A stretch of 64,000 nucleotides of DNA from Nemertoderma westbladi (taxonomy: Eukaryota; Animalia; Xenacoelomorpha), in contig JAUCBJ010004969.1 in assembly GCA_032718475.1 (NCBI GenBank), positions 1 to 64,000 of the forward strand. The letters run 5' to 3'. Below, one piece after another: positions 4,832 to 53,854 of the stretch (position 1 is the stretch's first letter; each line of letters begins with the position of its first letter). The translations under genes and the position numbers were made by a program. The notes under the pieces were generated by a model, which had not been told where the DNA came from, ran no database searches, and was given only the letters and a program-made list of their open reading frames with translations.

Positions 4832-5948
4832 TGTTTTCTTTTGGTCCAACCTTGGGACAGACAAACATCGAGAGGATGGCAGCCTAAACAGTTAGGCCGT
4901 CAGCAACGCAGGGGAAAGATGTCCACAACACGCTAGCGCCCACTTTAGATTTGACCGCACACCCCCTTTGCCCTTCGAAATACTCCGACTTCCCATGCAG
5001 CGCCCGCTTTATGAGGAAGGTAAGACTTTGTTCGACGCCCTTGCCCAACATAAGACCTATAGATCAGGGTAAGCGTGATGCCGTCCTAGGACGCCGCAAA
5101 ATTTAGGATCAAATAACTATATTCTAGGCAACCCCCCCCCCCTTGTCAGTACTGCAAATCCCTGGGTTACCTGTATACCTCACAGGTGCAAGCTATTGCC
5201 GTTCGTCAGTACGCAAGTACACATTAGGTACGGACAGCATACGTTCCATAATTTAGTGATTTGTTAGTACTGACTGTTTGGTACCGGTTCGCTTTGTAGA
5301 GCATACATTAGTACCCCCCCCCCCCCCCCCCCCCCTCTGCCTGAAGTTAGTTATTTGATCAGGCAAGGAGTATTTCTGCTACCGGCACACCGCTTGGCCT
5401 AGGGAGGTTTTATTAATATCCTACTGCACCTTGCCACGTACTGATAGGTATCTGCTGCTAACTACCGCGGCAACAAAATTCTAGAATCAAATTTGTATAC
5501 CAGATCAGCTAACGTACGGTAGCGATTAACCCCTATTTCTTATCTTACAACCAGAATCTGGTATTAGTGCCGATCACGGGTCTAGTTACTAACACCGTGG
5601 TTGCCCAGTTGAGTTGTGGATAGGAAGGAGAGAGCTTTGACGTCATTTGTGAGTATAAAGTTCTACAAACGCGACTAGTTTATTTTAGTAGCTAGTGCAC
5701 GGTATCATTTCAGTCAGAAAATCACTAAAACCTAGTGAAAAGATATACACCAAAATTGTTTTTATTGTAACACACCCACACACACACGCCCTAAAACATA
5801 TTTACCCTTAGAGTTCTACTAGTTATAGCGCACTTCGGATTACGTTAGGCAGAATTTATCTGTATTTGTAGAATTAGGATCTGATATTTAGTTACGGCAA
5901 AAGGAGTATTTCATCATTTTCGTTATTAAACTGTTGTTTGCCTAGAGC

Positions 5949-6077
5949 ATCAGTATTGTTACGTTAGGCACGACCCTTTTTAGACTGATTTCGTACAGGG
6001 GGATCAGTTATTGTTACATTAGGCACGACATCTTTTAGGCTGATTCAGACAGGGAGATCAGTATTGTTACGCTAGGG
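5949..6077 (+). repeat. ~54-bp tandem repeat (about 2.4 copies) in the BEL leader
   Basis: ATCAGTATTGTTACGTTAGGCACGAC... repeated. Confidence 0.8.
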
Positions 6078-7269
6078 CTGTAACCCACCTAGCTCGTATA
6101 TAAACCATATAAATCACACCGCGGCAAGTTACGGTATTTAGGACTGTCAGCGATAGTTAGGATTCGCTGCGCGGGGATTGTTTTCCCGTGAGTTTGGTCT
6201 GTTACTGTAACTGTACATCTGCCATACCGGTTAGAGGACAGGTTTCCTTTTGTCTAGTTCGTAGGCATTAGACCCGCTCACGTACATAGAATAGACACCA
6301 GGCTCTGCTCCTCGCCAGTAGTAGTTTGTGTACTGTATCTGTTCGTTTAGATATCCTGGACTGGGATTTGTTGTCAGATACTGTACAAGCCCGTTTCATT
6401 ACTAGAGTCTCATAGTAAGATACATCGTTACTAGGATCTGGTAAGCGGTATACTACTGGACTTTACGGTTAGAGATATTCTATAGCTTCATATTAGTAGA
6501 CTTGTAGGCCGTAGGATAGCCCCTACCGTAGAGGATACAACAGTGAGGTATATTTATTATTAAATTTGCAAGTTGCGATTTGCAAATTATAAATATATTG
6601 TTAGCTATTGTAAGTAGGAGATATTTAAAATTTAAGGTTAGTAAATTAGTAATTTGTAGAACGTCCCCTGCTTCAGTAGGCTTTAGGGTAGCTAGTAGTT
6701 TCGTATTTAATATTTGACTAGCTAATAGTTAGTTTGTAGCAATTTGTTTTACGCCGTGTGTGTGCGGTGTTACTTTCGGTACTTGAAAAGGTACATAGGG
6801 TTTAAAGACCAAGTTGTATCGGTACCTAGGAAGATTTTTCGTAGAGTAGAAGTAAAACTCTCACCTTCGACTTTTCAGGACTCAAGGACTCATTTCTGGA
6901 CCGCTTCGAGGATTAGACCGCTTTTCGCAAAGTTTGGGAGACAATAAATTCGTCCGCGCCGCCGAAAAACGGAACGACCCACGTCCGGTTTGTATTTGCG
7001 AATTTGCACGACTGGAAGATCAAAGGAGCGTAAGTTTTACGACTCGTGTCGTTCAAACTTAGAAAGCACAGTAGTACTCAAAATTTGTGGGTTTCACTGT
7101 CTAATTTAGTAGTGTTGTTGGTACTTATTTTCCCGTTAGACGTTGCTGTTTTGCCTATTATTTGTACTTGTTGATCTACCTTTTGGTAACGTATACCGTT
7201 ATCTCACGTATTCGTACAAATTTAGCCGGTAGGCTAGATTATTACTTATTTTATTATATACTTTGTTAG

Positions 7270-7462
7270 TTTTATTTGTACCGGTTAGGGTATATATATG
7301 ATATATATATATCAAGGTAAGTTTGACATTTGGACATTTCGACATTTTGACATTTCGACATTCTGACTTTGTTTTTTTATTTGTACCGGTTAGGGTATAT
7401 GTGTTATATATATACCAAGGTAAGTTTGACATTTCAACATTCAGACACTTTGACATTTTATT
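7270..7462 (+). repeat. ~106-bp tandem duplication with GACATTT sub-repeats just upstream of gag
   Basis: TTTATTTGTACCGGTTAGGGTATAT...CAAGGTAAGTTTGACATTT present twice. Confidence 0.85.
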
Positions 7463-7489
7463 ACCCGTACTTGACGTATATAATAAGAC

Positions 7490-10400
7490 ATGAGTGACAC
7501 ACCCCATTCGACGAGATACCCACCTACCGACTATGACTCATGTGACCCGGACAGATCGACAGTAGACGAACCGAGAAGGAGAACCCGAGATTCCACCGAT
7601 GTCATACTGCGTGCGTCGCCGGTACCCCGTACGGAAATACCGGAAGCCGCAACGCATGGCGACGGTAGGATCGAAGATTTCCTTACCGTCCCGCAGACTA
7701 GATCGCGGGAACCGGACATGGTAAGTTCGACTGGAAGCCAGGAGAACGTCATTAGAAGCATAGGAGGACACATGGCCCAGATTACTCGGAACCTCGGAGA
7801 AGGTTTTCGCACTTTACGCGAGTTATCCGCCCCGATGTCAAGATACGAGTTCTATACCTTACAGGTAAGGATAGAAAGTAGGGTACATGCCTCCGTAGAT
7901 AAACTTAAAGGTTTACACGAACTTGCCGAGTTGCGTGGCGACAACTTTACTCAGGTAAAGATAATAGATAAGTTAGTAAGTGCGAGAGAAAGTATTATCC
8001 AGTTTAAGTCAGTAATAAGATTGGCTCAACAGGAGCAGTTCGACCAACTGCTAGGTGAGTCAGTTTCGGACGCGTTGTTACAACCCGAAGAGGAGGAAGA
8101 ACTTTATTGCCTGGACGGAAGGTTGGAGACGCTCACCAATTTTCTTCGTAGATGCGGCATACCGGTCGAAGAACCGGAAGTCGAACCGCGAGGGACGACG
8201 GAAGTTCTCACTACGGAAGGCTCGCGAGCCTATCAGCATCCACCACTGGATAGATTGTTCGTTAGCATGTGGAGCGATGTTGGCGACGTTAGTAGGACAG
8301 CGTCTGTAATTACTCGACAACAACAGGAAGTTGCACGCCAACAACAAGTTGCCGAGGAAGAAGCGCAACTACAGATGGCACAGATCGCCACCGAGGGAGA
8401 GAAACAACGCAGAGAAGACGAGGCGAGAATTGCGCAACTCAAAGCGCAAGCCGAATTTGAAGCATCGGAAATGTGTAGATTGGAGGAGGACCTAGCGCGA
8501 GAAGCGGCAGCAGCAGCCGACGAGTTAGCACGGAAGAAAGCAGCATCCGACGCTCGTGCTCAGTTGGAGGCACGGCAAATAAAATCGCGATTAGCCATTC
8601 AGGAAGCGGAGTTAGCGGCACAACAACAAGTAGCAGATCGACGCGAAAGAGAGATGCAACTACAGTTCGAATTTAATCGTAGATCGCGCGAGGCAGCGAA
8701 CGCGCAAGCGGACCTCGAACTCGACGCGAGAGATAGATCTATAAGATCGCGAGCTGGACACGATTTGTCTGCCCTGGATCGCTTGGAAGCTCGATATCGC
8801 GGGATACAGAAGCGAATTGAGGAAGGGAGTGTGGGAGCGATGGATCGAAAGGATGAGTTCGTCGAGGATTATTGTAAACGTTTTCCACAAGTTATTCCTA
8901 TGCTCAAACCCACGACTCCGATAAATCCGATCTTTGTTACGAAACCGAAGGAAATAACACCTGTGCGCTCGACGCAAGGTGACAGGTTTGTTGTGACGGA
9001 AATACCGCAACCTAGGGCAACTTCATCGCCGATTTTAGCAGGTAACATAACTATTCCACCTACAGTAAGTCGTAGTCTACTTGTAGGAAGAGAGGAACCT
9101 GCGTTTGTAACAATTAAACAGGTAAGTAAACCGTCAGCAGTTCAACCTGCAACGTGCTGTGCGAACTCAGTTGTTTACAGATTGACTACGAAACCCGATT
9201 ACTTTACTCGACCATTGACACAATGTTCGACGCGACCTACGACTTCGTGGAAGGCTTGCGAGCCTACCGAACAACGGAGGAGGACGGATGTGGGTAGTAC
9301 CCACAGGATCGAACAATGTTTAACGAGACCTACGACTTCGTGGAAGGCTTGCGAGCCTACCGAACGACGGAGAACCGTAGATTCTGGACCGCAACGCATT
9401 CGACAACGAGTAATACGCCATACGCGAACCCGCCAACCACCTTACACGGACGACAGCGATTCATCCAGTGACTCGGAGTCGACGGAACGGGAAATATTCC
9501 GTACTGGAGCGGCGGCTGATTACAAACAGGAGGAGAGATCAACAAATCCATACATCAACAATCCTCCACGAGAAACACCTTTGCAGAAACCCACGTTGCA
9601 ACCGACTGAGACGATTACCACCAACAGACTCGCCGAAATAATGCGACCTGTGGCGGACCGACTAGCTCAACTCGAAGAGCGACTCGAAGCGCAACCGTCG
9701 GATCGATCACGAACAAGCGTGGAGTTAGAACAACCTAGACAACATCGACCACCGAGGAGAGAACAGGAGACTAGACGGACTCCGACCCATCGAGAAGAAG
9801 ATCCCGTTAATAATTCCTACCGACGAACAACGCGCGGAAGGGAATGACTGGACGACGCCATCGAACAGGGATGCGGACAGTTGGACTTAGTTAGCGAGAT
9901 TGCGAAATTCGCGGCTAGACACGGATTACCGGCACAGCAACCGCCGAAGTTCTCTGGCAACGCGAAACACTGGCGCACACTGGTAGACTACGTAGAGTCC
10001 CAGATCGCTAAGTGTGCTTTCACCTCGACGGAGAAGTTTAATTACTTGCTCCTAGTCCTGTCTGGTGAGCCGAAACAATTAGCGGAAACCTTCATTGGTG
10101 TTCCAGATGCCTTTGAGTTGGCGTACGACCGTTTGTATTCGATTTACAGTGGTAACGTGGCCATGGCTAAATCCATCATCGAAGACCTCTGCAGAGGAGG
10201 CAGCATTTCGAACCCGATCGACCTTCTACGACTCGCGGACGAAATCAAAAACGCTATAGGGACTTTACGGTCCATCGGACAACTCGAATACGCTAACGCA
10301 CCGACGGTTCTCATCAGGATAATCGTTCGACTTCATCATCGACTCCGACGAGAATGGCGACGCATCGAGTATCAGCATGAAGAAACCGGCGGGCTATTAA

Positions 10401-11437
10401 AACTCACCGACGTCTACCAACTGATTTCCCGGGAGGCCGTTATCGAGACTCGATCGAACTATACCAATCACCATATCGCGGCAGAAGGGATAGCTATTTC
10501 TGCGCTGACTCGGACTAAACCATTTCCGACGAATGCGAAAGCCGTTACCTACGCCACCCCTACTGAGACTTCTAAAGTTCTGACGCCTATCGGCACCACG
10601 CAGCCACGACAACAGTTGCCGGCGGACTTTGTGGGAATCTCGTACTGCGAGCGGAACGGCAGAAACGATAGCGGACATAAACTTTGTGGATGTTGCGCTT
10701 TTAAGGAGTTAGGAATCGAAGAGAGGAGACTCCAGATTCAATCGTTAGATTCCTGCTGGAGATATATGAAGCCAGGACACGTCCGGAAGGATTGCCCGAG
10801 CGACGATACATGTCCTCAGTGTGGACGTAACCATGACGCGTTGCTCCACACAACCAGTCATACTCCGACCAAACGCTTTCGACGAGAGCATCCAGATAAA
10901 GCGGCTAGATGCGACGCGCTTTACAAGGAGCGTGCGCCGCGCGAGATCCATACGTTTTTTACGGACTGTATGGATCAGTCAGGATCATCGGACGAGGACG
11001 AGGAGGAGGGCGACACTTTCTACGTGCATGCGGGTGAGGAACAGCCATCGATAACGCTCCTCACACAGAACCAATTGAAAGGGTTTAGCGTGATTCCTAT
11101 AAAGATTACCGGAAGCCGAGGGAGCAAGCATATATACGCCATCTTAGACTCTGCGTCATCACATAGCTATGTCGACAAACAAGTAGCCGATGTGGTTACG
11201 GACATGAGTCAAGGTAAGACTGCTCAGTATACTGTAAGCAGCATGCATGGTAAGAGAGCGATCCCTGTGACGAGAGTAAAACTAACTTTAGACACTCTTC
11301 TTTCCAAAGCGGAACACAGCAAGGAGGAGCACTCATTACTTCCAGTAAGAAATTTGACCTTTGCAACTACGAAGGACTGTAGTAACTTGCTCGGCCCTGT
11401 GCCAGAGCAATCACCAGAAGATCGTAAGTATTTCTGA
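7490..11437 (+). CDS. gag: BEL/Pao Gag plus aspartic protease (in-frame TGA at 9845-9847)
   Basis: Long N-terminal E/Q/A/R coiled coil, then PPKFSGNAKHW...EKFNYLLLVLSGEPK (DUF1759-like), BEL Cys-His array (CWRYMKPGHVRKDC...CPQCGRNHDALLH) and protease motif YAILDSASSHSYV. Confidence 0.9.
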
Positions 11438-14400
11438 CACCTTGGAATACCGGAATGTCCTGTTAATTATCGCTCAATCGCGATGTTGATTGGGACAGAC
11501 CAGTTTAACTTACATCAGGTATGGGAGACACGCCCATCTGTTATTACAGCAGGCAACCCCTACGCATGTAGAACTCCCATAGGTTGGTATACTAGAGCTC
11601 CAATACATTCACTAGAGGTAAGTGACCAGGAGGACGACGTTTTGAGTACGTGTAGTTTATTGACTAACACGATAGATAATTCTCCTTCACACTCCTGTGG
11701 TCTTATTGTACAGACGGCAATATGACAGACTTGCGTCACTAACGCAGACGCCATCGATACTGACGTAACTGATCTGGACACGACCACACGGACCTCTGAC
11801 CTACAACTACTTGCAGCAAACCAGGTTGTATTGACTACTGGAGACCAAAGGGTTGTTGCCGTGGATGACTCGATGAACGAGGATTTTGGAAGGCTTGCGA
11901 GCCTACCAAAAATTACTAAGGTCATTGACCCCACCCACCAGGCTTTGACACTGGTCGTTGATCTTGGAAGGCTTGCGAGCCTACCGACAGATCAAGAGGT
12001 TGTCAAACCGCCACAAAACGATTCGACGCCGACTAGTGACACCGGAAGGCTTGCGAGCCTACCAGACACATTGACACTAGCCACCGCAGCGGACGAAGAC
12101 GTGGACGAGGACCATGGCGCAGTGCAAGCAGCGCTTGACCGACTGCTGACTGAACGGACCATTCAATGGTTGGAACAGGACTCAGCAGAACCCGGTAGTT
12201 ACGAGACCGCTATGTCAGAACAGGAAAAACGGTCATTAAATATTATGAGAGATACCATTCGCCAGACCGCAAATGGCCACTACGAGGTTGGTATGTTGTG
12301 GCGCAATGGACAACCTAAGCTCGTTAACAATTACCCACTTGCTTTGAGGCGACTCAAATCAATAAGGCAGCGATTGTATCGAGACGAGACGGCCCATATG
12401 CAATACAATGCACAACTTCAGACGTATCTCCAAAAGGGATACGCCATTAGGATGTTAAATCCCGAGGTGACCACAGATCAGACATATTACCTGCCACATC
12501 ATTTTGTTCGACACCCGGACAAACCTGGCAAGGTGCGTGTAGTCAACGACTGCGCCGCACTTTACCAAGGGATGTCTATGAACAGCGAACTGATGGACGG
12601 GCCAAATATGAATAATTACCTCATGGGAGTCCTAATGCGTTTTAGACAACGCAAAGTGGCTTTCACCTGTGACGTAGATGCCATGTTTCACCAGGTTAAG
12701 GCTTTGGAGCGGGACAGGGACAGCTTGAGGTTTCTTTGGTATCCGGACGGAAATTTAGAACTTCCGCCAGAAACTTACCAAATGCAGGTAAGAGTTTTCG
12801 GAGCCAGGGACAGCCCCAACTGCACCATGTACGCCTTAAAGCAGACAGCATTGGACAGACGAGACCAGTTTGACCCAGAAGTAGTTCGGACCGTGGAACG
12901 AGATTTCTACGTGGATGACAGCCTCAAGAGTTGTGACACCTTGGAGCGTGCTACAACCGTAGCACACCAACTCCAGGATTGTCTCGCTGAGGGCGGATTT
13001 CACCTGACGAAATTCGCTTCCAACGAACCTGAACTGGTGAACTCATTTGACCCGACAGATCGTAGTGGAGGGGACTTGGACTTAGACCTAGAACGTCTAC
13101 CGACGACCAAAGTATTAGGACTTAGTTGGGACCCTAACACCGACAATTTTAGGGTACGTGTAAGGTCCAACGACCCGACTAGACCTCTCACTAAGAGGAC
13201 TTGCTTATCGACCATGAGTCGATTGTATGACCCATTGTGTTTCATTAGTCCAGTGATCCTACATGCTAGGATCATACTCCGCAGCATTTGGCAAGCCGGA
13301 TTGGAATGGGACGACCCCATCCCAGAAAAGTTAGCTGAGCAATGGAGGGACTGGGAAGCCCAACTGACTTTCCTACAAGACTATACCATACCAAGGGTAT
13401 ACTTTCCTTTGCAGACCACCTTTCCTGCCGATTTAGAGTTTCACAGCTTTAGTGACGCTAGCAAGGATGGATTGGGGGTTACATTATACCTTAGACGACA
13501 AGTGACATCGGACAGCTACGATGTGTCTCTCGTTACTTCTAGGGCTAGAACAATGCCATTGAAGTATATGACTGTACCTCGTGGAGAGCTACAAGCCGGG
13601 ACGATATCCACAGATATTGTCAGTCTAGTTCAACGCGAGCTGGAGGCTAACTTGAAGGTCACATATTGGACGGATGCGACATTGGTACTTTGGTACATAA
13701 ACAACAAAGCGTTTGAGTTCAAGACTTTCGTAGCCAACAGACGGGCTGAAATCTTAGACCGGTCGCTCACACAAGATTGGCGTCACTGTCCAGGGAAGCT
13801 GAACCCAGCTGACATCGCGTCACGGGGGATGCAACCACTTCACTTTTGTAAACCGTACAATAAATCCTTTTGGTTTAGAGGACCCGATTTCCTACAGCGA
13901 CCATCAGACGAATGGCCACCGTTATTCGACGCGACAACCAATACCGTACCAGAGGGTGCCGAGATAAAAATCGACAAGGTTGTCAAATCTAAAGCAAAAG
14001 CCAACGCCAAGGTCAAGGGGAAACAAGGACGGACGGGATCTGATGACCTGGACGCTAGACCTGACATTACGCCAGACGTCTCACCAGAATCTCGACCAGA
14101 CGCTTGTACGAATCTTTCACTGGATGTTCCGCGGGAGATTTCACCAGACGTTTCGCCAGATTGTTCAACAGATTACTCGCCAGATTATTCACCAGAAGCG
14201 ACACCAGATTGTTCTCCGGATTGTTCGCCAGATTGTTTTATGGAACTCTCGACAGATTGTCTACCGGACGTCTCACCAGACTTTCCACCAGACATCTCAA
14301 CAGACTGTCCACCAGACTTTAGACCAAACTTTCTGACAGAAGTTACGCTTGACACCTTTTGGGACCAACGACAGGACATTTCGCCGGATGTTCCGCGCTA

Positions 14401-16269
14401 TGTCTCACCAGACGTCTCACCAGACTGTTCATGGGACGCTTCACCAGACTGTCTATTAGACACTCCACTAGAAGACCCATTGGAGCGGACCATTAGAGAC
14501 TTACCGAATTTGACTTCTTTGGACGACAGAGGTGTGGCCACAGCGATCACACTCCGCTCAAAGAAAGTACTTGACTTACCACCTACAGGTAAAGGTGTGA
14601 CTAAGGTTAGGAAGCTTACAGGCTCACAGGAACACACTGGTACTGTAGAGTTGAAACCGTTACTGCCAGTCGACTCACTAGGAGCGGACGGTAAAGGTAA
14701 GACCGTGGAGATTGACATACTTGGGGACTCAGGCAAACCTACCGGAAGGCCCGTGGGCCTACCAAGTCCAGACAAGTATCCACACTACGACTATACCTTA
14801 CCTGATGACGTCACTAACACTTATGTTGACCGGATATTAAACCTAACTAGATCATGGACTGACGCATGGCTCAAACGTTTGAGACAATATGCCAGAGGCA
14901 AACGCGACTTTCCTAGAAGACTTACCTTAAAGGAAGTTGTTCATTGTGAAGTTGATATCATTCGCCATTATCAATTGCGATATTTCGCACGAGAATTCAC
15001 AGCGATCAACCAAGGTAAACAGATCAAGTCTTCACCGATTTTGAGTTGGAGTCCGATTATTTATCGGGGCTTACTTTGTCACAAGTCCAGACTCCAAAAC
15101 ATCGACTTTGCACTTGACTTTAGGTATCCTATCATCATACCGCAACACCATGAATTACAGCGCGCAATGATACTGGACGCACATGTACAACTCAAACACG
15201 TGGTTAGACACCACTGTCTATCACACTTACGATCAAGGTTTGTACTGATTAGGCCTAGCAAGGCATTGAGTTCCGTAACACGGAACTGTATGATTTGTAA
15301 GAAGGTGCACGCGAGGATAGGACACCAGGAAATGAGTGAACTACCACTAGCTAGATTACAGGCGTTTAGACCCCCTTTCACTGAGACGGGGATAGACTGT
15401 TTTGGACCCATAATCGCGAAACGCGGAAGGGTACAGGTAAAACGTTGGGGATTGATCTTCACTTGCATGGCCAGCAGAGCTGTCCATATTGAGCGTGTGA
15501 CAGATTTAACCACCAATGCCTTTATCCTAGCCTTACGGCGATTTATCGCTAGACGTGGATTGGTCAAATCCATTTACTGTGACCAAGGGACAAACTTTGT
15601 GGGCGCACGGAACGAAATAACCAGCGCTTTGAGGAAGTTGGACCAAAACCAGATTTCCGAGGAACTACGTCCTCACCGTATTGTTTGGAATTTTAATAAA
15701 CAATAAAAACAGCTATAGCTAAAGTAATACCGACGCAACACATCTTGACAGACGACCAACTGACGACGTTACTAATAGAAATCAAAGCGATTTTGAACAC
15801 TAGACCAATCGCTTTGATCCCAGACAATAACGACGTACAGTTTGCCTTGACACCAGCACACCTGCTTATGCAGGAGCCAACGACATTGTTGCCCATTTCG
15901 GTACCCGTTAATAGCGACGGATACGGCAACAAGGTTTGGAAAATCACTCAACTGCTTGCTAATAAATTCTGGGAAATATGGCAGAAATATTATTTGCCCT
16001 CTATTTCGACCAGAACCTCTTGGTATCTAAATACACGATGTTTGAGACGTGGTGACCACGTTTTATTGGCTGAAGCCAATCTGAAAAGACGGTTTTGGCT
16101 GACTGGAGTCATTTTGACCACACACCCTACATCTGGTGTAGTAAGGACCGTTACTGTAAGGACTATCGACGGGCATACCGTAGATAGGCCTGTACAACGT
16201 CTCGTACTCCTAGAGGAGACTAGAAACGAGACAGGAGACTACAAATCTCCACCCAATATTAGTAAATAG
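11438..16269 (+). CDS. pol: BEL/Pao Pol (protease end, RT, RNase H, integrase), disrupted by TGA at 11723-11725 and a frameshifting deletion at ~15700
   Basis: YYLPHH, DVDAMFHQV, FGARDSP, FYVDD (RT); FSDASKDG, WTDAT, NPADIASRG (RNase H); H-H-C-C zinc finger, GIDCFGP, YCDQGTNFVGA (integrase); DUF5641-like C-terminus. Confidence 0.95.
14057..14470 (+). repeat. In-frame 12-bp minisatellite encoding (x-S/P-P-D)n inside pol
   Basis: PDITPDVSPE...SPDVSPDCSTDYSPDYSPE...SPDCSPDC. A shorter version is present in the second copy at ~50230-50395. Confidence 0.85.
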
Positions 16270-16993
16270 ATGTGGGACCTTTGATGGCTGCCACATAGCT
16301 TTACCGTATTTTAGTAATTTAGTATTTTGTATTACTGTATGTGCATTTGTAATCCTCTTCACTGTAGATAGAGACAGCGGTGGAATTCCATTGTCTTTAT
16401 ATGTGAACATGGAGGGTAGTACCCTTATGTATCACATAGGAGCGGGATTGTGTGTACAGTAGGAATGGAATTCCACTTGGAACCCACAAGTGAGACAATT
16501 TTTCAAAAATTATTAAACAAATCCATTTAGTTGGATTTAAATTTAAGAAAAATTATTCTCCAGTGAATGCGAATTCTAGAATACAGCTAGATAAAAATTA
16601 AAAATTGGGGAGGACAAGAGTGGATGGAAGGCTTGCGAGCCTACCGATAAATTTTTTTTTGGAAAAAGAAAATTGGCCTTGTTCTACGTAGTCGTGTCTA
16701 CTATTATTTAGACCGAATTAATTCTCGACTGCACTATTTTCTTTTGGGAATGTAGCTTGGGAAATTAAAAGGTGAGTATTTTAGACTCACGGCTAGTTTA
16801 CCCGGAATTCGTTTTTTATCGGCACAATTTTGGATTAGGAGCCAGTGCGAAATCACGCAAACCCGAAGTCATTAGGCAAATGGGTTGGGGTTTAGAGCAA
16901 AGTTGAGCCAAAAGCCGACAAATCACATCTAACCTCTATTTTGTGCTTCATCTAGTAGAAACGTAACGATATGTAACCATATATTCGTACACG

Positions 16994-19900
16994 ATGGCAG
17001 AGAAGATGTACAAGGAGTTATGTCAAGGGTTTACGCAGGAACAAGAGCACCAGGCACCATTTAATCGTTATGGAGCTAAAAACTTTAACGTGTTTGGAGT
17101 GGAGAGTATGGCTAGGAGTACAGCCAAGTTCGCTAAATCCAAGGCGGACCCGAATGTTACGCGACAGCAGTTGGACGCATATAACAAAAGAGTGGAGGAA
17201 TTACTCGCGGAGTTCAATGCGTTATATCCTTACGATGCGTTATGTGACGCTAGCGACATTTGCGAGGATCCAGACACGGAGATACGCCGATTGTATCATA
17301 CGCTGCAATATTTGACGGCGAACGAACCCTTACCTGCAGCCAGAGACGATTTCGAAGGAATGCATCTTTATAGATGCGCTCGAGGAGCTGATCCAGAGAC
17401 AAAGGACACGTTCTCCATATACAAACTGTTTTATAAACATGTATGCATGAGCAAGACAACGCGATTCCTATGCAGTTGAACTCGGAGAACCCCGAGCCGA
17501 TATTAGCGCGATGCTCATACCACCAAAGTCTACGTTACCAAGAAGGTGGATACCCTTTGACGAATCCGTACCATTCGTTTAAAATGAGTGGACCAAACGC
17601 GGGTGAGATCATTATTTACAAACCCAAATTAGTCGAACCAGATGTCTACAGCATGGTAGTGGACGAGTCTAATAAGTCGACACAAGAGAAACGGGAAGCT
17701 TTGAGCCTCTTCAGGGCGTACAAGGCGTACGAGAAAGGCGAGATCGAGGAGTTCGGCGAAAGGCTCGCGAGCCTACCATTCTATTGGATATCCCACGATC
17801 AAACCGAACCCAAGGAGATGACACCCAAACTCTTCGATAGTATCACCTTTGCTCAGCATTTGTCGCAGAGACTACAGATACCTCATGTCGAGATGACGCG
17901 AGAACCTCAGCCCCATTCTGCTGGAGCGATAGTACCAGTTGCGAGACCAACTAGTTTTCCTATTAGTATACCGACCCGGAAGGAGACAACTTATGAGATT
18001 CCTATAGTTGAACACCCGGAGATCATTTCGAACCTGGATTTCCTCCCATCGGTTACCTTTGGCGATGTGTTGGAGTCAGCCGAGTTGCGTAAAATAATAG
18101 TTCAAAAAATCGTACGCAACGTGCCTCCACATATTACGGACTTTAAGGAAGTGGATCGCGCGGGGACGGATATCGCACCTTGTATCTTGCGAGGATATCT
18201 AACGAAAACGATTCGATTATGGATCGGAGTTGGAACGATTGAGACCGACACAGATATCGCGACCAATTGGACCGGTAAACCTATTAGTTTCGATGATGAA
18301 AAGTCGATTGGGAGAATTTGGAACCCTACCGACGATTTACTCGACGATTGGGACGTGACTAGCCGATCTCTAAAGGAGAATGGTTATATGTTTTACGATA
18401 ATGAAGGAGGAAGCCATCAGCAAAGCCTCACTTCGAAGACTATACAGATTAGAGCACCAGATGGCGTGTTACATGTCTTCAGCCGACAGAGGAGTGATAG
18501 AAAGATGCCTATGCCGGAAGGAACGACGCAAAGACACGCGATGATAAAACGGATAGTTAAATCCATGGACCTGGCTTGTAGCATAGAAGCTAGGATGTTG
18601 CCAAAGGCCGTGCGAGATATTGTGTTGGATAAGAGCATCGTCAAGATCGGATCCGGTGTACGGGATGACCTTATTAGCGATTTTGCGGGAATGCCCACGG
18701 AAGAGGATCGATTGCCTACGCCATATGTGGATACTAGACCATTGTTGCTCTGGGCTATTGAGCAAGGATATTTTAGGGAGTATAACACGCTAAAAACTGG
18801 GACGGGTTATATCTCATATCTAATGTTCAGTTGGGATTACAAGGAGAGTAAGAGAAGCAAATACATGGACGTATACGGAGAGGGAGATACCCCCGGCGTA
18901 AACGAGTTCGAGTCACAGTTGAAGTGGCAAGGTTGCGTGTATTGGGCGATTACTTCACCTCCGCGAATAATCTTGCAATACTATTTAGCGATAGAATCTT
19001 CGGTTAACATTTGTTTCATCGCGGATGTAGTATCCAGAACCCTAAAGCGACACCCGTTATGTCTCGGCGAAGGACATACCTTTTACGACGGAGGAAGGAT
19101 GCATACTGATGTATTCCGACGATTTCTCCAACCCTTTTATAACACCGATGCGCACTGCGAAGTTTTCACGCGAGCGGGACTTAGCGTTTTCAGGGACGTC
19201 TATCTCACTCACGCGGGAAGTCTAGTCAACAGACCGTCGATGTTAACGTTAGTACCCTGTGACGGGGAACGCCACGCGGAATTCAAAGACCCGGAAGGAT
19301 CCTGGAAGGCTCGCGAGCCTACCGCCTATCATGACGATGTGGACCCGACCGAGTTTGCGATGATAGACGAACCGTTGCGGCAACTCATAGAGATAGAGGA
19401 GAACCTTCCGAGGAAGACGCGAACTGAGATACGCGAGTTGGAGAAAAGCGATTCTATGGTTTGTGTACAACCTACGGAGACGAACATACCGACTGACCCG
19501 GATGATGAGAATTATCACGTGGATGGTAGCGCTCGCCCCATCGGAGATCTCATCTATGAGCGAGTTTGGTACCCTGCCAACACTATTTGTGGGAGATGCG
19601 GGGCAACTGTCCATCACGCAAAGAAATGCGGAGCAAAGCACATATCTCTCTACCGGACTTAGTATGCAACTGGTGCGGGGATCAACGTTCGCACACTTTC
19701 TACACTTGCTGGCGTTTCGTGGTGCAGTGCACGTATTGTAATATTAAGGGCCATAGGGCATCGGAATGTCAACTTAGAGACGTCCCCTATGAGCACATGT
19801 CAGTTAAAATCGTCCGACAGTTATTCGACCATTGGGAGGATCTAGCAGACGAGCATGTATCGACGCAGCGACGCCGTTTCCCTATGAGAGCACATTTGGG

Positions 19901-20132
19901 ATTTTGGGCTGCCGTAAACCCTCTCATAATGTCAAAGGAAGGATATGTATCGGCTATGCCTCAGTATGATGAATTGTTGGAGGTGCTGGATATATTGCCA
20001 TTGGACAGTGGATTCAAAGTTGTGCGGGACTATTTCTTACAGGTGCACCCCGACAACAAGAATACTTGGAACTTTCAAACTATGATGAACAAGATTACCG
20101 CCGGAGAATTCGATAAACTGCGAGTTGAATAG
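16994..20132 (+). CDS. BEL ORF3 (~1040 aa, two frameshifts): DEDDy 3'-5' exonuclease (WRN/EXD/Mut-7-like) plus three CCHC-like zinc knuckles
   Basis: Overlapping ORFs 16994-17479, 17443-19662 and 19566-20132. ExoI FYDNEG, TIQIR, LPKAVRDIVLDKSIVKIGSGVRDD (ExoII), YVDT, W...QYYLAIES (ExoIII-like). Knuckles CGRCGATVHHAKKC, CNWCGDQRSHTFYTC, CTYCNIKGHRASEC. Confidence 0.75.
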
Positions 20133-20175
20133 CGAAATCGAGGAGCCTGGCATTCGATAGGGTCACACCAAAGGG

Positions 20176-22092
20176 TTGCGGGAGTTTATCGGTATGGTAA
20201 CGTTTTACCACCGATTTATACCCGCAGCTGCTGCCGCACTGCAGCCACTTTACGCCGCCGTCGCCACCAAGGCTAGGGACATCGACTGGACTCACGAACT
20301 AGCCGCATCCTTCGAGTCCTCCAAGCGGGCCCTCGCAAACGCCGCCATGCTCGTCCACCCTCGCCACGATGCGCCGACCTCCGTCACCACCGACGCATCA
20401 GACTCAGCTGTCGGCGCGGCACTAGAACAGTGGACCGATGGAAAGTGGCGACCGCTCGCGTTCTTCAGCCGACAACTTCGCCCTCCCGAACGGAAGTACA
20501 GCGCCTACGACCGCGAACTCCTCGGCTTATACCTCGCGGTCCGCCACTTCCGTTATTTTCTCGAAGGCCGAACGTTTGTGGCCTACACGGACCATAAACC
20601 CCTAACTCAGGCCTTCTCAAAGGTCACTGACCCCTGGTCCCCCCGTCAACAGCGCCACCTGGCGTACATCTCGGAATTCACCACGAATGTACGCCACGTA
20701 GACGGAAAGGACAACCAGGTCGCGGACGCCCTCTCTCGCAGCTTCGTGGGCCACCTGTCGACCCAACTCGGGGTCGACTATAAGGCCATGTCGGCCGCCC
20801 AACGGGAGGATGACGAACTACAGGCCTTCCAGGCAAACCCTGGTAGCCTTGATCTACGTGACGTCACACTCGCGGACGATGACGTCACGCTCCTCTGTGA
20901 CGTCTCTACGGGCCGACCTCGGCCGATAGTCCCCAGCACGTGGCGCCGCCACATGTTCGATGTGGTCCATTCGCTGTCCCACCCATCAATCCGCTCCACT
21001 AGGAAACTCCTCTCCGAGCGTTTCGTCTGGCACGGCCTGTCCAAACAAGTGACGAGCTGGGCCAAGGCTTGCGTCGCCTGCCAGACCTCTAAGGTTCAAC
21101 GCCATATAAAGGCCCCCCTCGAGACATTCTCTGTTCCTCGACGCCGGTTCGACCATGTCAACGTCGACCTGGTAGGGCCCCTCCCTCCATCCAGAGGCTC
21201 CACCTACCTGTTTACGATCGTCGGCCGGACTACTCGTTGGCCCGAGGCCATCCCGCTCGCCGACTCCACAACCGAGAGCTGCGCCCGCGCTCTCGTCGCC
21301 CACTGGATCGCCCGGTTCGGCGTACCGGTCGAACTATCCTCCGACTGCGGCAGTCAGTTCACCTCGGAGTTGTGGGCCGACGTCAACAGACTCTTCGGCA
21401 CCAAACTCCACCGGACGACGGCCTACCATCCGCAGGCAAACGGCCTGGTGGAACGGTTCCACCGTTCCCTCAAGGCCTCCCTTAGAGCCCGACTAACTGG
21501 ACCAAACTGGGTCGACGAACTGCCATGGGCCCTTCTGGGCTATCGGACCGCCCCCAAAGAGGACCTCCACTGCTCGTCGGCCGAGCTGGTCTACGGCGAG
21601 CCACTGACGGTGCCTGGCGACTTCGTTGCCTCGCCAACCGACCCTCCGAACTCGACAGCTTTCCTCCCGGGCCTCCACTACCACGCACGGCAGTTCATGC
21701 CCACACCAACCTCCCGTCATGGCCAACCCAACTCGTCAGTGCCGTCACAACTAACAACCAGTGACGATGTCTTTTTACGCACTGATGCTCACCGCGCTCC
21801 CTTACAGCGGCCCTACACCGGGCCGTACAAGGTCGTACAGCGCGGCTCAAAGACGTTCGTCATCGAGGTGGGCGGGCGTCAGGAGACCGTCTCCATCGAC
21901 AGACTCAAACCGGCCCACCTCGCTATCGATGAACCCGTCATTGTGGCCATCCCACTGCGCCGTGGTCGACCACCTACAGTGACACCCCCGGACCTCCCTC
22001 CCCCCAGTCCCTGCAATTCACCCGAACCACCGCAAACTACCATAGCAACTCGAAGTGGGCGGGCCATCCGGCAGCCGGACTATTTTTATTAA
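20176..22092 (+). CDS. pol: Gypsy Pol fragment (RT thumb, RNase H, integrase)
   Basis: TTDASDSAVGAALEQ, YSAYDRELL, YTDHKPL, NQVADALSR, HHCC finger, VNVDLVGPLP, AYHPQANGLVERFHR, GPY motif. Confidence 0.95.
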   Translation: MREFIGMVTFYHRFIPAAAAALQPLYAAVATKARDIDWTHELAASFESSKRALANAAMLVHPRHDAPTSVTTDASDSAVGAALEQWTDGKWRPLAFFSRQLRPPERKYSAYDRELLGLYLAVRHFRYFLEGRTFVAYTDHKPLTQAFSKVTDPWSPRQQRHLAYISEFTTNVRHVDGKDNQVADALSRSFVGHLSTQLGVDYKAMSAAQREDDELQAFQANPGSLDLRDVTLADDDVTLLCDVSTGRPRPIVPSTWRRHMFDVVHSLSHPSIRSTRKLLSERFVWHGLSKQVTSWAKACVACQTSKVQRHIKAPLETFSVPRRRFDHVNVDLVGPLPPSRGSTYLFTIVGRTTRWPEAIPLADSTTESCARALVAHWIARFGVPVELSSDCGSQFTSELWADVNRLFGTKLHRTTAYHPQANGLVERFHRSLKASLRARLTGPNWVDELPWALLGYRTAPKEDLHCSSAELVYGEPLTVPGDFVASPTDPPNSTAFLPGLHYHARQFMPTPTSRHGQPNSSVPSQLTTSDDVFLRTDAHRAPLQRPYTGPYKVVQRGSKTFVIEVGGRQETVSIDRLKPAHLAIDEPVIVAIPLRRGRPPTVTPPDLPPPSPCNSPEPPQTTIATRSGRAIRQPDYFY

Positions 22093-22113
22093 TTCAGGTT
22101 CTGGGGGGAGCCA

Positions 22114-22343
22114 TGTAGTGGCCATATATATATATTAGGGGTCATCGAACCTGAATTGAACTAATACTGTTGTACCTTACTGCAGTATGCACCCATCACT
22201 GCACTGTATCAACTTTCGGTTTCATGGAAACTATTGTTACAGTCAGACAGTGGCTGTACCCGTAGTCATTACTAATACTGGTTTTACTTACTGCTGTACT
22301 GACTCATGTAAATATTAAACGTTGAGAGACTACGCTCTCTACA
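22114..22343 (+). repeat. Gypsy 3' LTR (230 bp)
   Basis: Starts TGTAG right after the PPT, ends CTACA, contains ATTAAA poly(A)-like signal. Confidence 0.85.
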
Positions 22344-22580
22344 CAATATAATATTGTCAAATGCGACTGTCAAGATGTGATGCTATAATTAACGATTAAC
22401 GATACGAATTAATTAATGATTATTTTAAAATTAAAACATATTATAAAACACATTTCTTACTATACTGTAAGTACACGTTCGTGGGGACTTCGCGCAGCAC
22501 GAGGCCTAGTTATTATATACAAATTAAAATGCAGCGACTGTATCACAAAATCAGGTTTTGAGAAATTTACCCACACCACC

Positions 22581-23230
22581 AATCAATCAAAGAAAGGTGG
22601 ACAGTACGTGTTCACCCCTTTTAATCTCCCCCCCCCCCACCCTTCCCAACCACCAATACATAACCGCGACATCTACCACCCACGGAAGGGTAGCACGAAC
22701 TTATTTCCAATCGCACGTTAAATATGCAAAGCCAGGTGGTTTATAGGAATATAATAAACGCAGTACTCGTTTTCATTATAAGCCTCTTTGCGTTCGTCCT
22801 GTTTTGTATTTAAATATATTTCTTAAACGCAAGCTAGGACGATCTTTATAATAATAATAACTAGGGATGCGATCAATATGTGAAGCCAGGTGGTTTATAT
22901 AATAATTTAGTCAACGCAGTACTCGTCTTCATTATATGCCTCGTTGCGCTCGTCGCTTGTCCTGTTTTGTCATAAAATATTTTTCCTAAACGCAGACTGA
23001 CGATCTTTATACAGTTATAACTATGCGAAGTTTCGAAACTGTGCGAGTAACTGTTGATACATCTATGTGGAGATGTGTGATATGTGGAGATGTGTGATAC
23101 AACGCCAACGCATCTTATGCCGATGTAGTAATATGGGTATTGAAATAATATTAAATCAATGTACACTCTTAAAGCTGCAGCGAAAAAATGTAGCTAATTT
23201 CCTAGGTTACATATAAAATAATAATATTAT
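22581..23230 (+). repeat. Interspersed repeat with internal ~130-150-bp sub-repeats, copy 1 (copy 2 at 50553-51160)
   Basis: AATCAATCAAAGAAAGG...GTGTTCACCCC...CTTAAAGCTGCAGCGAAAAAATGTAG shared with 50553-51160 in the same orientation. Confidence 0.8.
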
Positions 23231-23952
23231 TTTTAAGAACATTAATTTTACTACTTTGCAAAAATTCAATTAAAAAATAACCAGACATATACATTGTGGA
23301 ATAAACTATTTCAGAAGCCTACAACAGCCATGCCATGGATTGTATTTATGTTATTATATCTGTCATTTAACTGAGATAGCAATAGTAGTAATAGTCGAAC
23401 GGTTATGCGGCCCGTCCAGCCTATAATAAACACAATTCAGTGATTGGGCTGGAATAGCAATACTGGTTGCCTCTATTACAATTCCTCTCAGGTTAGTCTA
23501 CAGCCACAACTCCCAGCAGCTAGCTCCACACCAGCAGAGACTTGACCAATAATGGGAAGGATTAAATTTGTACTCAATAATTGTGCGGTTTAATTACGTT
23601 TAGATCAATTAAAGACACATTTATTAAAGCAAATCACTTAAACTAATTAAAAACTATAATAGAATGGCGTATGGGGATTATATCTGTATAATTTTTAAGT
23701 ATAATTATTTAAATCTTATACTGTAAAACAATTAATTTCCTTTAAAAGGCAGGTTGAAAATGGCGTTTTCACCGCAATCAACTTAATTAACTAATTAACT
23801 GCTATTATCTGAGCTTCTCGAAGGCCACACGGAAATTCTACTTGGAAAATTTCTAAACTTTTGCCAAACAACATGTGTACCAAGTTTGGATAGATTTCAT
23901 CAAAGAATGGCCGAGTTATTAACGTTTAAAATTGAACACGACAGAACGACAG

Positions 23953-30370: not shown

Positions 30371-32381
30371 AAAAAAAAAAAATTCAAATTCAGAAGTGCC
30401 GAAATGACCTTCATAAGGCGCAGAAAGAGTCCCGACTCAAACAGACTACAGCGGCCAAGAATGCAGTTAAAGCTGCATCTAGGTCCCTGAACAGGCAGTA
30501 CTCTGTTAATCTACAGGAGCTAATAAACCAACAGGTTGATGCCATCAATGATGCTGACGACAGCAGGCAATCATCCCAGGCATGGAAATCGATCAATCTG
30601 CTTACTGGGCGGAAAAGCCAACCAACCACCAAGGTTAAGGCTGAATCACCAGCCGATCGCCTCAATGGTTGGAAAGCCCACTTTGAAAAGCTCCTCAATA
30701 ATGACAGGGTATTTCCTGATAACTTTATAGAAGTAAAAGTATCTGAGTCTGTACTCCCAGATATTCCCATTGGCGATATCTCCTTTGCAGAAGTGAAGGC
30801 TGCTGCAAAGAGCATTAAGACCAATCGTGCCAGTGGAGTAGATGGTGTTCCCCCTGAGGTCTTTAAAATACGTTATAAGTACGAAATAAATACGAAATAA
30901 GTTTAAAGCTCATCTATCCCATCATAGTAGACATGTACCGTACAACAAGAGTCCCACAAGAAATGAAAACAAATAAGTTGGTGCCAGTTCCCAAGAAGGG
31001 CAACCTAACACTCTATGGTTCTTTTCGGGGAATCTCATTGATCTCGATTGCTGCAAAACTATACAATAGAATTCTATTAAATCGCATCAGGGATCCCATT
31101 GAGAGACTGCTACGTGGAAATCAGAATGGGTTCCGTAAAGGTCGTGGGACCATGGAGCCCATTTTGGCACTTAGAAGGATAATTGAAGAGTTATCAAAAA
31201 AGAAAGACAGGCATCTGGCTGTTATCTTTGTTGACTTCTTCAAGGCCTTTGATTCAGTCTCTCGCTCACGTATGTTCAGCATACTTTCATTATATGGGAT
31301 TCCTGATGAAATTATTGCAGCAATCAGATCAGTATACGATGGTTCGACAACATTTGTGTCTACTGTTGATGGTGACACAGAACCATTTGAAGTGTTATGG
31401 GGCGTCCTCCAAGGAGACACACTTGCACCATTCTTGTTCATTATTGTGGTTGACTATGTTCTACGCATGTCCTTAGATCATCATAATGATGATGGGGTGA
31501 TGATAACTCCACCTACTGGCTCCAGAAGTCGAGGAAATCCTGCCAAGTACCTAACTGATCTAGACTTTGCTGATGACTTAGGAGTACTCTCAGAATCATT
31601 AGAGGGAGCCCAGCGGCTCCTCAGCTCATTAGAACATGCTGCTTCTAGTGTTGGTCTTTTTATTAACTCCAGAAAGACCAAAATTCTGACAGTTAACTTT
31701 GAAAGTCCTCAGCAAGTCTCTGATCGGATGAGCATAAGCTCAAAGGATGGTATGCTTGAGCATGTGGACGACTTCTGTTACCTGGGATCATGGATCCGGA
31801 AGTCAGGTGAGGACCTTCGAATACGTAAGGGAAAGGCATGGGCAGCCGTGAATAGGCTTTCCAGGATTTGGAAGTCACCTAGAATTAATCGGAAACTTAA
31901 GGTCCGATTATTTAGAGCAGCAGTAGTTCCAGTACTCCTCTACGGGAGTCCATGCTGGGCTCTAACTGCTGAGGACACCAAATCTCTGGATGGCTCATTC
32001 ACAAGAATGCTACGCCGGGTACATTGTGTCAAGTACAATGCACACATCTCCAACCAGACACTATATAACATTGGAGGTGTCTCATTGGTTCCCCCAAGCT
32101 TGACACTAGAACAAAATCGCCTCCGCTTTGCAGGACATTGCTTTCGCCGTGAGGACCAGCCAGTGCATAATCTTGTACTTTGGCAGCCTCATGGAGTGAA
32201 TAAGCATGGTGGACAGCCCATGACTTTCTTGAGACGCATCTTAAAGGACACTGGCCTTAAAGATGCGGATGATCTAGCAAATGTCATGGGTGATAGGGAG
32301 TTGTGGCGGTGCAATTTTGTTGACAAGCCGGCACAGCATTCTTAAAAATGCAGCTGCAATGCAGCATGCCGATCCTAGTAG
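30371..32381 (+). mobile_element. 5'-truncated RTE-clade LINE with 13-bp TSD
   Basis: TSD TATGAGTTCACAA at 30358-30370 and 32382-32394. Short TAG-repeat tail. The empty site is visible in sister copies at ~36290-36320 and ~41875-41905. Confidence 0.9.
30385..32345 (+). CDS. RTE reverse transcriptase, frameshifted near 30870-30900
   Basis: ASGVDGVPPE, FRGISLISIAAKLYN, QNGFRKGR, FVDFFKAFDSV, GVLQGDTLAPFLF, DLDFADD, FCYLGS, RLRFAGHCFR. Confidence 0.93.
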
Positions 32382-46229: not shown

Positions 46230-46590
46230 GCTGTACAATATCTACTGTAAAATCCCAACAATCGGGCCTAAATAATAGATACCAATGTACACAAACTACT
46301 ACTGGCGAGATCGGTGCCTGATGTCTTCCCCTAAACTTGGGCGAATCAAATGCCCTGGCTAACTTGACAATCGGGGTGACCAGTCCCTAACTGGTGAGGC
46401 AGAAATACAGTCTACAGAAACAGACCAAACTCGCAAGAAAACAATACCCGCGTAGCAAATCCTAACTACCGCTAATGGACCTAAACTACTGTAGACTTGC
46501 CGTGGAGTGATTTATATGGGTATAACAAGCCAGTGGGTTGATAAAACTAGCGTAAAACAATACTGTTGACAGACAAAAGCAGTCAAAAAA
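46230..46590 (-). mobile_element. Diverged fragment of the BEL leader
   Basis: Reverse complement of ~6040-6380, e.g. GTACACAAACTACTACTGGCGAG and CAGACCAAACTC...AATCCTAACTA...GTGATTTATATGG. Confidence 0.8.
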
Positions 46591-47189: not shown

Positions 47190-47960
47190 CCAAGTTAGTT
47201 CAGGCTGCACCATTGTTGCCACCAGAACCACTAGGGACAATTACCCTTTCGAGATCATGTAGATTTGAAATATTATCCATCTTTATTGCTTTGTCGTCGG
47301 GTTTGACACGGACGAAGACAGCACAGTCGAAAGTAAAGGCCGCAGAAATACAATTAGATGATTTCATCTTTGATACTGCTCGGAATAATGCCGCATGATC
47401 ACGTGTCAGATGTTCTGTGACATATATCCCGTCAGTGAGACTCTTTCGGTTTCATAAAGTGGTTTTACGCGAGGAGTGCCCATATAATTTTACTATTATG
47501 GGGCGAGAATTAACCCTGTTGGAACCGTTTGCGAGAAGAACTTCAGGGGTTTGAGTGTTCGAGCGTTTCCGACCAAGCCGGTGGAATATATCGACCTCCT
47601 TTAGGGATAGACCAATTTTAGACAACGTATCCGAGAGTAAGGACTTCTCGGAGGAGAGGTCGCGCTGTTCCGGGAGAGTGTGGATAAGGATATTAGTACG
47701 CATCGTGTACTGGCGAAGGTCATCATTCTCTGCCTGGAGAGCAGTGATATCCGCCTCGAGTTTTACCGTAGACGGTTCCAGCTTTCTTGTCGAAATTTCC
47801 AACAATGCCACTTTATCAAAAAGTAGTGGGATTTTTGCACAGTCAGACTTGATCTGTTTGATATCGCCATGGAGGTCATGAAGCCATTGTAGAAGTTTAG
47901 GGCCACATTCCTTCCAATGATTCTTCTGTCTAAGAGCTGAAGCGAGGATTTAATGCTAAC
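47190..47960 (-). pseudogene. LINE (CR1/L2-type) ORF1 protein with coiled coil and RRM-like domain, disrupted
   Basis: DDLRQYTMRTNILIHTLPE...FHRLGR...RPIIVKL...IYVTEHLT motifs. Confidence 0.75.
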
Positions 47961-48504
47961 TGAGTCACCGTTAACGGTACCAGTAGTTAAACGCGTCCAG
48001 ATAGCAGACTGTTTGGATTCTAGGCCTACTTTACGACATCACCGTACAGCAGTGCTCTGCAGTACAGAGTCGTGCAGTAGTAAAATCGAGGTATCGGATA
48101 TCGAGGTAGTCATGGTCGAGTGAAAAGCTGGGTCAAAACATGGGTGGATATCGAGGTAGTCGTGGTGGATTGAAAAGCCGGGTCAAAACGTGGGTGGATA
48201 TCTAGGTAGTCGCGGTCGTGTGAAGGAAAACAAGGTCTAATTAAGGGTGGGTGGAAGAAGTAATCGTGGTAAGTGGAGAACAGTGTCGTAAAGGTATAAT
48301 ACAAAGCAAAATAATAATACAAAATGCAAATCAAAAGAAATACAAATAGGAACAAAATACAAAAAGAACAGGGAACTCTTTAAAATATTGTTCCTTCTTT
48401 TATACTCATTCAACAGCTGATATTGATAATCAGCTGTGTCAAAGCCACTTAACCAGTCAACCAAAACCTTCATTTCAAATTGGTTTCAGCCGATTAAAAC
48501 ATGG

Positions 48505-53848: not shown

Positions 53849-53854
53849 AAATTA

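Follow-up and report, generated by a model that had tools for sequence, protein, structure and literature searches.

A putative DEDDy exonuclease with three zinc knuckles encoded behind pol in a decayed BEL/Pao retrotransposon of Nemertoderma westbladi

Background

What would a retrotransposon gain from a large third gene that is not an envelope gene? This question is raised by a decayed BEL/Pao element in Nemertoderma westbladi, located on the + strand of a 64,000-nucleotide stretch of genomic DNA (contig JAUCBJ010004969.1, positions 1 to 64,000; hereafter the window). Behind gag and pol there is a third open reading frame (ORF), ORF3, at 16994-20132, which an earlier note on this DNA had described as a WRN/Mut-7-like 3'-5' exonuclease with triple zinc knuckles in the env position. 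The best explanation of the present results, by analogy with a characterised enzyme and with a probability of roughly 0.5, is that the intact ORF3 product would have been a knuckle-guided trimmer of the 3' ends of single-stranded RNA.

Results and discussion

The third gene and its zinc knuckles

ORF3 begins with an ATG at 16994, 724 bp past the pol stop, and ends with a stop at 20130-20132 on the + strand, spanning ~1046 codons. It is distributed over three overlapping + frames (16967-17479, 17437-19662, and 19560-20132), which contain the pieces A, B, and C of Table 1. The earlier description of a third ORF of ~1040 codons with two frameshifts, following pol on the same strand, is thereby borne out. 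The three CCHC-like knuckles of that description were recovered by a pattern scan at 19588 (CX2CX4HX4C), 19665 (CX2CX5HX4C), and 19728 (CX2CX4HX4C). A frame break separates knuckle 1, in the second frame, from knuckles 2 and 3, in the third, and only the third knuckle matched Pfam zf-CCHC (E 6e-4, slightly below the threshold set by its curators).

The maximum 19-residue hydropathy means are 0.31, 1.5, and 0.78 for pieces A, B, and C, respectively. As the top value is 1.5, ORF3 has no clear membrane anchor, and no glycoprotein family was matched, in keeping with the earlier observation that an obvious signal peptide or membrane anchor is lacking. The possibility that ORF3 is a retroelement env was rejected on these two grounds.

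Neither of the two frame overlaps contains a slippery heptamer, and programmed frameshifting is therefore unsupported. Neither frame break is among the 12 indels listed, of 57, between the window and the contigs of public sequencing runs (see below). The synonymous/non-synonymous counts of 5/8 in ORF3 and 9/16 in gag-pol are uninformative; they comprise 38 of the 40 listed differences (one of the two dropped is non-coding and the other lies in a Gypsy fragment), with 1165 further differences in existence.

Evidence for a DEDDy fold

The central domain of ORF3 probably has the DEDDy fold of the WRN/EXD2 type, in a diverged and remote form. When the ESM Atlas was queried with 18364-19035, the top match was a Werner syndrome-like exonuclease cluster (0.93; 173 of 256 features; 23 of 30 matches; recognition 2654), of which 38% of the members are annotated with PF01612; shuffled proteins obtain a top match of at least 0.9 in 4-10 of 100 cases. 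With residues 40-741 of piece B as the query, the top match was a Euglenozoa cluster carrying PF01612 (100%) and zf-CCHC (61%), at 0.85, which may be taken as a lead only.

Profile comparison points in the same direction. The references were a bacterial WRN-like protein with its relatives, and Mut-7-like proteins; the former protein has PF01612 at E 1e-22 and PDB matches to WRN, EXD2, and mut-7. By hhalign, the score against the bacterial WRN-like profile is 30.2 over 65 columns, while the best of 60 shuffles reached 20.1. The scores against the Mut-7-like profile (22.1, with a slightly different query range) and against a mix of 25 sequences (25.4) were each reached by none of 50 shuffles. 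The score against the PolA exonuclease profile is 17.5, under the shuffle maximum of 25.7, and that against two RNase D sequences is 14.9, not above noise. The signal centres on the Exo II region. In a test for ordered motif blocks, ORF3 also outscored all 300 shuffles of one set and all 200 of another. The earlier DEDDy call is likely to be correct as to fold (ESM Atlas 0.93, hhalign 30.2), an intact active site being less certain, and, with profile scores of 22.1 vs 30.2, 'Mut-7-like' appears to be a less apt label than 'WRN/EXD2-like'.

An AlphaFold model guided by bacterial DEDDy sequences has a predicted local distance difference test score (pLDDT) of 52, rising to ~70-77 in the Exo II region. 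With this model Foldseek retrieved DEDD-superfamily proteins, including EXD2 (E 3e-4, TM 0.32). A viral fold library gave no match at E<=0.001.

A Pfam search of the domain, which the earlier note had proposed, came out negative: PF01612 was matched neither at E<=10 in four sub-ranges of the domain nor at E<=1 in the whole piece, and the curated cut-off is thus not reached. Two sequence-pattern searches for ORF3 yielded 60 and 7 matches, none of them confirmed. A phage match at E 3 was discarded, as it belongs to no family and its motifs disagree, and further weak database matches were dismissed.

The active site

In alignment A2, D 18397 and E 18403 of Exo I and D 18667 of Exo II fall on invariant columns, so that the Exo I D-x-E and the Exo II D are both present; every alignment pairs D 18667 with the invariant D. 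The block test picked D 18397 and E 18403 in two of three settings, and the third setting, like an earlier run of the test, took an upstream D-x-E at ~18292. An insertion of ~30 residues lies between Exo I and Exo II.

The candidate Exo III, assigned by eye, is W...Y-x3-E, with Y 18982 and E 18994, and not the canonical Y-x3-D. All motifs of the earlier note, including D 18397 and E 18403 as well as Y 18982 and E 18994, lie where it had placed them; it had not named D 18667, and had rightly remarked that the last acidic residue is E, not D. ORF3 lacks two strict features of DEDDy exonucleases, namely the D of Exo III and a Pfam match above the cut-off. Because Exo III is ambiguous, exonuclease activity is uncertain; as judged from the sequence, the balance tips slightly toward intact activity in the ancestral element.

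The BEL/Pao element and the membership of ORF3

The + strand carries a gag with DUF1759 (E 5e-10) and a pol with Peptidase_A17 (E 1e-39) and DUF5641 (E 4e-19) by Pfam; Integrase_H2C2 in pol was matched below the cut-off, and the reverse transcriptase (RT) motif YVDD is found at 12908. The order of gag, protease, RT, RNase H, then integrase, with Pao-type domains and YVDD, is that of BEL/Pao elements (Belpaoviridae). The copy is dead and decayed, with gag-pol broken by in-frame stops at 9845-9847, 11435-11437, and 11723-11725 and by a frame change near 15700. One Gag Cys-His box was matched by pattern at 10811, and two degenerate boxes were seen upstream in translation; a triple Cys-His box in Gag is given as a BEL/Pao feature in excerpts of PMC554778. 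No convincing primer binding site or polypurine tract was found at the element. On the - strand, the stretch similar to the putative 5' long terminal repeat (LTR), at 46232-46565, is found downstream of a second pol fragment, and neither a partner LTR nor boundaries were found in the window for the stretch at 6059-6400. The element is without a 3' LTR because a GC-rich Gypsy fragment begins at 20161. In frame between the RNase H and integrase of pol there is an array of 12-bp repeats encoding SPD-type peptide repeats (13985-14485), and the second pol fragment also carries such an array.

ORF3 belongs to a high-copy BEL/Pao family, and it is very probably part of the BEL element itself. Membership was assessed from the distribution of a repeated motif (see below) and from contig depth in four public DNA runs (X1-X4) over 6500-23500; contig depth is not equivalent to copy number, the runs were retrieved with the spacer-ORF3 stretch, X1 and X2 represent one sample, and one of the four is possibly the source of the window. 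The mean depths over gag, pol, spacer, ORF3, and the Gypsy fragment are 38k/52k/51k/26k/0.7k in X1, 25k/25k/27k/27k/0.6k in X2, and 34k/38k/41k/22k/0.6k in X3. In these three runs the depth is continuous through the spacer, is similar over gag, pol, and ORF3, and drops 30- to 50-fold after ORF3. The GC contents at the three codon positions of piece B (0.52/0.40/0.52) also resemble those of gag and pol.

At ten distantly related BEL loci (37-51% integrase identity) nothing matched ORF3; in seven of them the DNA downstream is shorter than 2 kb. The second pol fragment is silent on ORF3, since it stops inside DUF5641.

A dispersed near-palindromic motif

Copies of a ~20-bp near-palindromic motif (Table 1) occur at 8218, 9252, 9345, 11891, 11969, 12047, 16629, 17761, and 19307, with a degenerate copy at 14747, i.e. 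three in gag, three (and the degenerate one) in pol, one in the spacer, and two in ORF3. Apart from these, the 64 kb contain a single copy, within the second pol fragment, at 50016-50031 (-). A count of 19 strand-matches at 10 places, where 0.02 would be expected, was reached by none of 100 shuffles. Approximately seven of the places are independent, because 9252 and 9345 lie in a local duplication and 11891, 11969, and 12047 form a trio at 78-bp spacing. The motif was absent from all ten distant BEL loci, and it had no exact match in viral contigs.

The orientation is always the same. Because the motif occurs in each of the three reading frames, the constraint acts on the nucleic acid. In two of three contexts it can form a stem of 5 bp with a loop of 4 nt, with z-scores of -0.5 to -1.4 that are not significant, and its one compensatory pair is reached by 87 of 500 shuffles. 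No Rfam family was matched in 5000-21000. The motif could be either a hairpin that tags the RNA or a DNA site bound by a dimer, and the fold data do not separate the two. It is a candidate cis partner specific to this element. Binding by the ORF3 knuckles is a matter of speculation, and the Gag nucleocapsid is an equally plausible binder.

Proposed function and alternatives

Under the proposed explanation, ORF3 in the window is the broken third gene of a decayed copy, and its intact version would have been a soluble accessory enzyme. The presence of its own ATG, the long spacer, and the lack of a membrane segment suggest that it was soluble and expressed apart from Gag-Pol; it would be expressed separately, as env-position genes are, and would act in trans. 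The knuckles would grip single-stranded RNA, just as RNA binding is provided by the zinc fingers of the Trypanosoma brucei enzyme TbRND, and the DEDDy domain would trim RNA 3' ends. The trimming of RNA is proposed because TbRND is the nearest characterised architecture. The substrate may be short single-stranded RNAs in the cytoplasmic ribonucleoprotein of the element, most likely the small RNAs of host silencing or their precursors, with the RNA ends of the element itself ranked next. The repeated hairpin-like motif could, speculatively, mark self RNA for the knuckles. A fully specified version, in which the triple knuckle would recognise hairpin tags on element RNA and the trimmer would destroy host small RNAs or precursors there, is improbable. 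If true, it would represent self-protection at the RNA level by a counter-silencing ribonuclease encoded by an animal LTR retrotransposon, which was not met in the literature searched.

A number of results weigh against RNA 3' trimming by a DEDDy enzyme of the BEL element. With regard to identity, the hidden Markov model (HMM) of the WRN-like proteins gives piece B 6.0 bits in hmmsearch, over all 1001 decoys (best 2.2), and gives an unrelated frame of the window 7.0; the Mut-7-like HMM gives piece B no match at E<=1. In the block test, an unrelated integrase frame scores about the same as ORF3 (13.1/23.1/3.2 vs 14.5/26.6/1.9). Relatives of ORF3 were found neither among 5688 candidates nor, at E<=0.001, among 1.84 billion protein representatives. 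There was no PDB sequence match at E<=10, and Pfam, PHROGs, and NCBIfam gave no exonuclease family. The unguided AlphaFold model is uninformative (pLDDT 34, no fold matches), and the best VIA match of the guided model is weak (Z 7.2, rmsd 4.7, 154 residues aligned). Moreover, the fold matches of the guided model are circular, because the guide alignment consists of DEDDy sequences. The structural comparison proposed in the earlier note is therefore circular in the guided case (EXD2) and uninformative in the unguided one. With regard to the active site, the last acid is E, and the candidate Exo III was aligned to Exo III in one MAFFT run, while two other alignments and the block test disagree. 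With regard to membership, the mean depths in X4 are 34/54/262/254/100 in the above order, and among the contigs listed for X1-X4 none spans pol to ORF3. The evidence gathered bears on fold, architecture, and membership, and none of it directly on the substrate.

In X4, over 15572-20107, the spacer and ORF3 have ~5 times the depth of gag-pol, and part of gag is uncovered. This pattern could reflect non-autonomous derivatives bearing ORF3, or a diverged sister family.

Some of these results agree with the view that the exonuclease likeness is due to chance, or that ORF3 is a separate repeat lying behind pol in some copies. The standard sequence searches were all blank, shuffles may attain high ESM Atlas values, the ten distant relatives (most with short downstream DNA) have no ORF3 match, and the depth in X4 is higher over ORF3 than over gag-pol. 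This view is quite unlikely, however, considering that two ESM Atlas queries and the profile test converge on PF01612, that the element-specific motif is found twice in ORF3 and once in the spacer, that the depth in X1-X3 is unbroken through the spacer, and that the codon-position GC of piece B is like that of gag and pol. A different alternative retains the DEDDy fold with weak or dead catalysis, the product serving as an RNA-binding adaptor (cf. EXD1 and Maelstrom) that localises, protects, or packages the element RNA. It is consistent with the non-canonical, by-eye Exo III, where alignment A2 places a helix without Y or D, with the large insertions flanking the domain core, with the repeated hairpin-like motif as a possible cis site, and with the inactive DEDD derivatives in piRNA pathways mentioned in excerpts of PMC5408684. 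Such an adaptor must nevertheless be regarded as doubtful, because all three acids of Exo I and Exo II are retained on invariant columns, and a W followed by a Y and an acid at Exo III spacing lies inside a predicted helix (residues 199-213 of the guided model).

Zinc knuckles are also able to bind single-stranded DNA, and on a further reading the domain would act on DNA, proofreading for RT or trimming the ends of cDNA or primers within the particle. Of the profiles compared, the WRN-like one comes closest, and DNA is what WRN acts on according to excerpts of PMC5603734. A DNA-directed 3'-5' exonuclease is hardly probable, however, because ORF3 is a separate gene at a distance from pol and unfused to RT, the PolA proofreading profile scores under its shuffle maximum, and the nearest architecture match is RNA-directed.

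Comparison with known systems

DEDDy enzymes have been described from LTR retrotransposons of bdelloids. According to excerpts of Rodriguez, Kenefick, and Arkhipova 2017 (PMC5408684), DEDDy ORF3s were acquired at least twice in the Juno and Vesta elements, with a change of DEDD to DEED, and DEDDy ORFs of bdelloids are common to Athena/Terminon elements, their function being unknown; excerpts of PMC6431247 and PMC5718144 give the same account of ORF3. Because of this publication, the novelty of the present ORF3 is lower than first thought. As far as these excerpts go, it resembles the Juno and Vesta ORFs in being a DEDDy-type, non-env ORF3 that is located 3' of pol, has no membrane segment, and has an altered acidic set. 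The pattern of acids is D-E-D-(E) here vs DEED in Juno and Vesta, and ORF3 here is ~1046 codons long with three C-terminal CCHC knuckles, whereas a Cys-His-Cys motif is mentioned for Vesta2/5. Juno and Vesta are gypsy-type elements and carry a dUTPase, in contrast to the BEL/Pao host element of the present ORF3. This comparison is based on published descriptions; the sequence searches brought up no sequence from rotifers. In the excerpts, no function of the bdelloid ORF3s had been shown earlier, and what appears to be a separate case, in a BEL/Pao family of high copy number, suggests that LTR elements gain a DEDDy enzyme repeatedly because they benefit from it.

TbRND (PDB 7c42) shares with ORF3 a DEDDy domain followed by tandem zinc fingers. 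The likeness is one of architecture only, as no PDB sequence match to TbRND was obtained at E<=10; the top Euglenozoa cluster with PF01612 and zf-CCHC in the ESM Atlas is presumably TbRND. According to excerpts of PMC7797062, its C-terminal zinc-finger domain (ZF1-4) is required to bind RNA and to trim the 3' ends of guide RNAs efficiently, and overexpression of TbRND depletes guide RNAs. Unlike the retrotransposon ORF3, TbRND is a cellular mitochondrial enzyme, and ORF3 differs from it by ~190 residues between the nuclease and the knuckles and by ~450 extra N-terminal residues. With knuckles arranged like those of a characterised small-RNA trimmer, ORF3 provides a way to ask whether the retrotransposons of animals encode proteins that suppress silencing by small RNAs.

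Like WRN, EXD2, and Mut-7/Nibbler (PF01612), ORF3 has the order Exo I D-x-E, IQI strand, LP...KIG...DD helix-strand, and VD strand. It differs from them in falling below every Pfam threshold, in two insertions of ~30 residues, and in Exo III, where D is changed to E or the motif is displaced. Because no relative was found among 1.8 billion protein representatives, ORFs of this kind probably escape standard annotation.

The env-bearing Belpaoviridae (Cer13, Tas, and Atlas; PMC8742986, PMC9094657, and PMC554778) share with the present element the BEL/Pao backbone and an additional gene located after pol and before the place where the 3' LTR is expected. In contrast to their env, ORF3 has no membrane segment or glycoprotein match, and is nuclease-like and knuckle-bearing. 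The ICTV profile gives gag, pol, and env-like genes only for the Belpaoviridae (PMC8742986). The word 'exonuclease' is absent from the main texts of the BEL/Pao survey PMC3118150 and of PMC9094657, and the excerpts of PMC3985635, PMC5603734, PMC554778, and PMC11662393 mention no BEL exonuclease. No exonuclease ORF of a BEL/Pao element was thus found in the main texts and excerpts covered. An exonuclease is said to have been reported in a nematode BEL element, a statement that was neither confirmed nor excluded.

Other features of the window

Table 1. Positions of the BEL/Pao element, ORF3, and adjoining features in the window
Feature	Position	Strand	Remarks
Putative 5' LTR part	6059..6400	+	74-77% similarity to 46232-46565 (-); presumed LTR
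gag region, BEL/Pao	7487..11437	+	ORFs, DUF1759; in-frame stop 9845-9847
Remaining part of pol: RT (YVDD), Pao RNase H, integrase, DUF5641	11438..16269	+	Stops; frame change near 15700
AT-rich spacer between pol and ORF3, 724 bp	16270..16993	+	One copy of the repeated motif at 16629
ORF3 piece A, N-terminus	16994..17479	+	ORF; no family matched
ORF3 piece B, 741 codons	17437..19662	+	~300 N-terminal residues without family, exonuclease-like domain, acidic linker, knuckle 1
Putative DEDDy (WRN/EXD2-type) 3'-5' exonuclease domain	18364..19010	+	ESM Atlas, hhalign, alignment A2; insertions of ~30 residues
ORF3 piece C	19560..20132	+	Knuckles 2 and 3, then ~120 C-terminal residues without family
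Three CCHC zinc knuckles	19588..19769	+	19588-19629, 19665-19709, 19728-19769; pattern scan
Gypsy RNase H-integrase fragment, unrelated	20161..22092	+	RT_RNaseH, rve; GC 0.58-0.63; depth step; boundary marker
~20-bp near-palindromic motif, dispersed	8216..19322	+	Window consensus GGAAGGCTYGCGAGCCTACC

The window as a whole is a nest of retroelements in decay. Among them, the second pol fragment (48453-50552, -) belongs to a related subfamily with 83% DNA and 71% protein identity and ends inside DUF5641; the LTR-like stretch at 46232-46565 is 1.9 kb downstream of it. A frame at 47300-47950 (-) resembles by eye the ORF1 of a LINE (coiled coil and RNA-binding domain) and has no Pfam match. A distant BEL/Pao pol fragment is present at 55236-57460 (+), with a weak Peptidase_A17 and with DUF5641 at E 2e-21, and is followed by no + strand frame of at least 120 codons up to 59000. 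An RT fragment at 30879-32345 (+) matches RVT_1 at E 5e-29, and an RNase H fragment of the Gypsy type is present at 53842-54519 (+).

Outside the window, a BEL element with a single ORF, apparently intact and lacking ORF3, is present in head-to-tail copies on two metagenome contigs (L003 and L006). Within the window, a repeat of very high depth occurs at 22581-23228, shortly after the Gypsy fragment, and at 50553-51158, where it abuts the second pol fragment.

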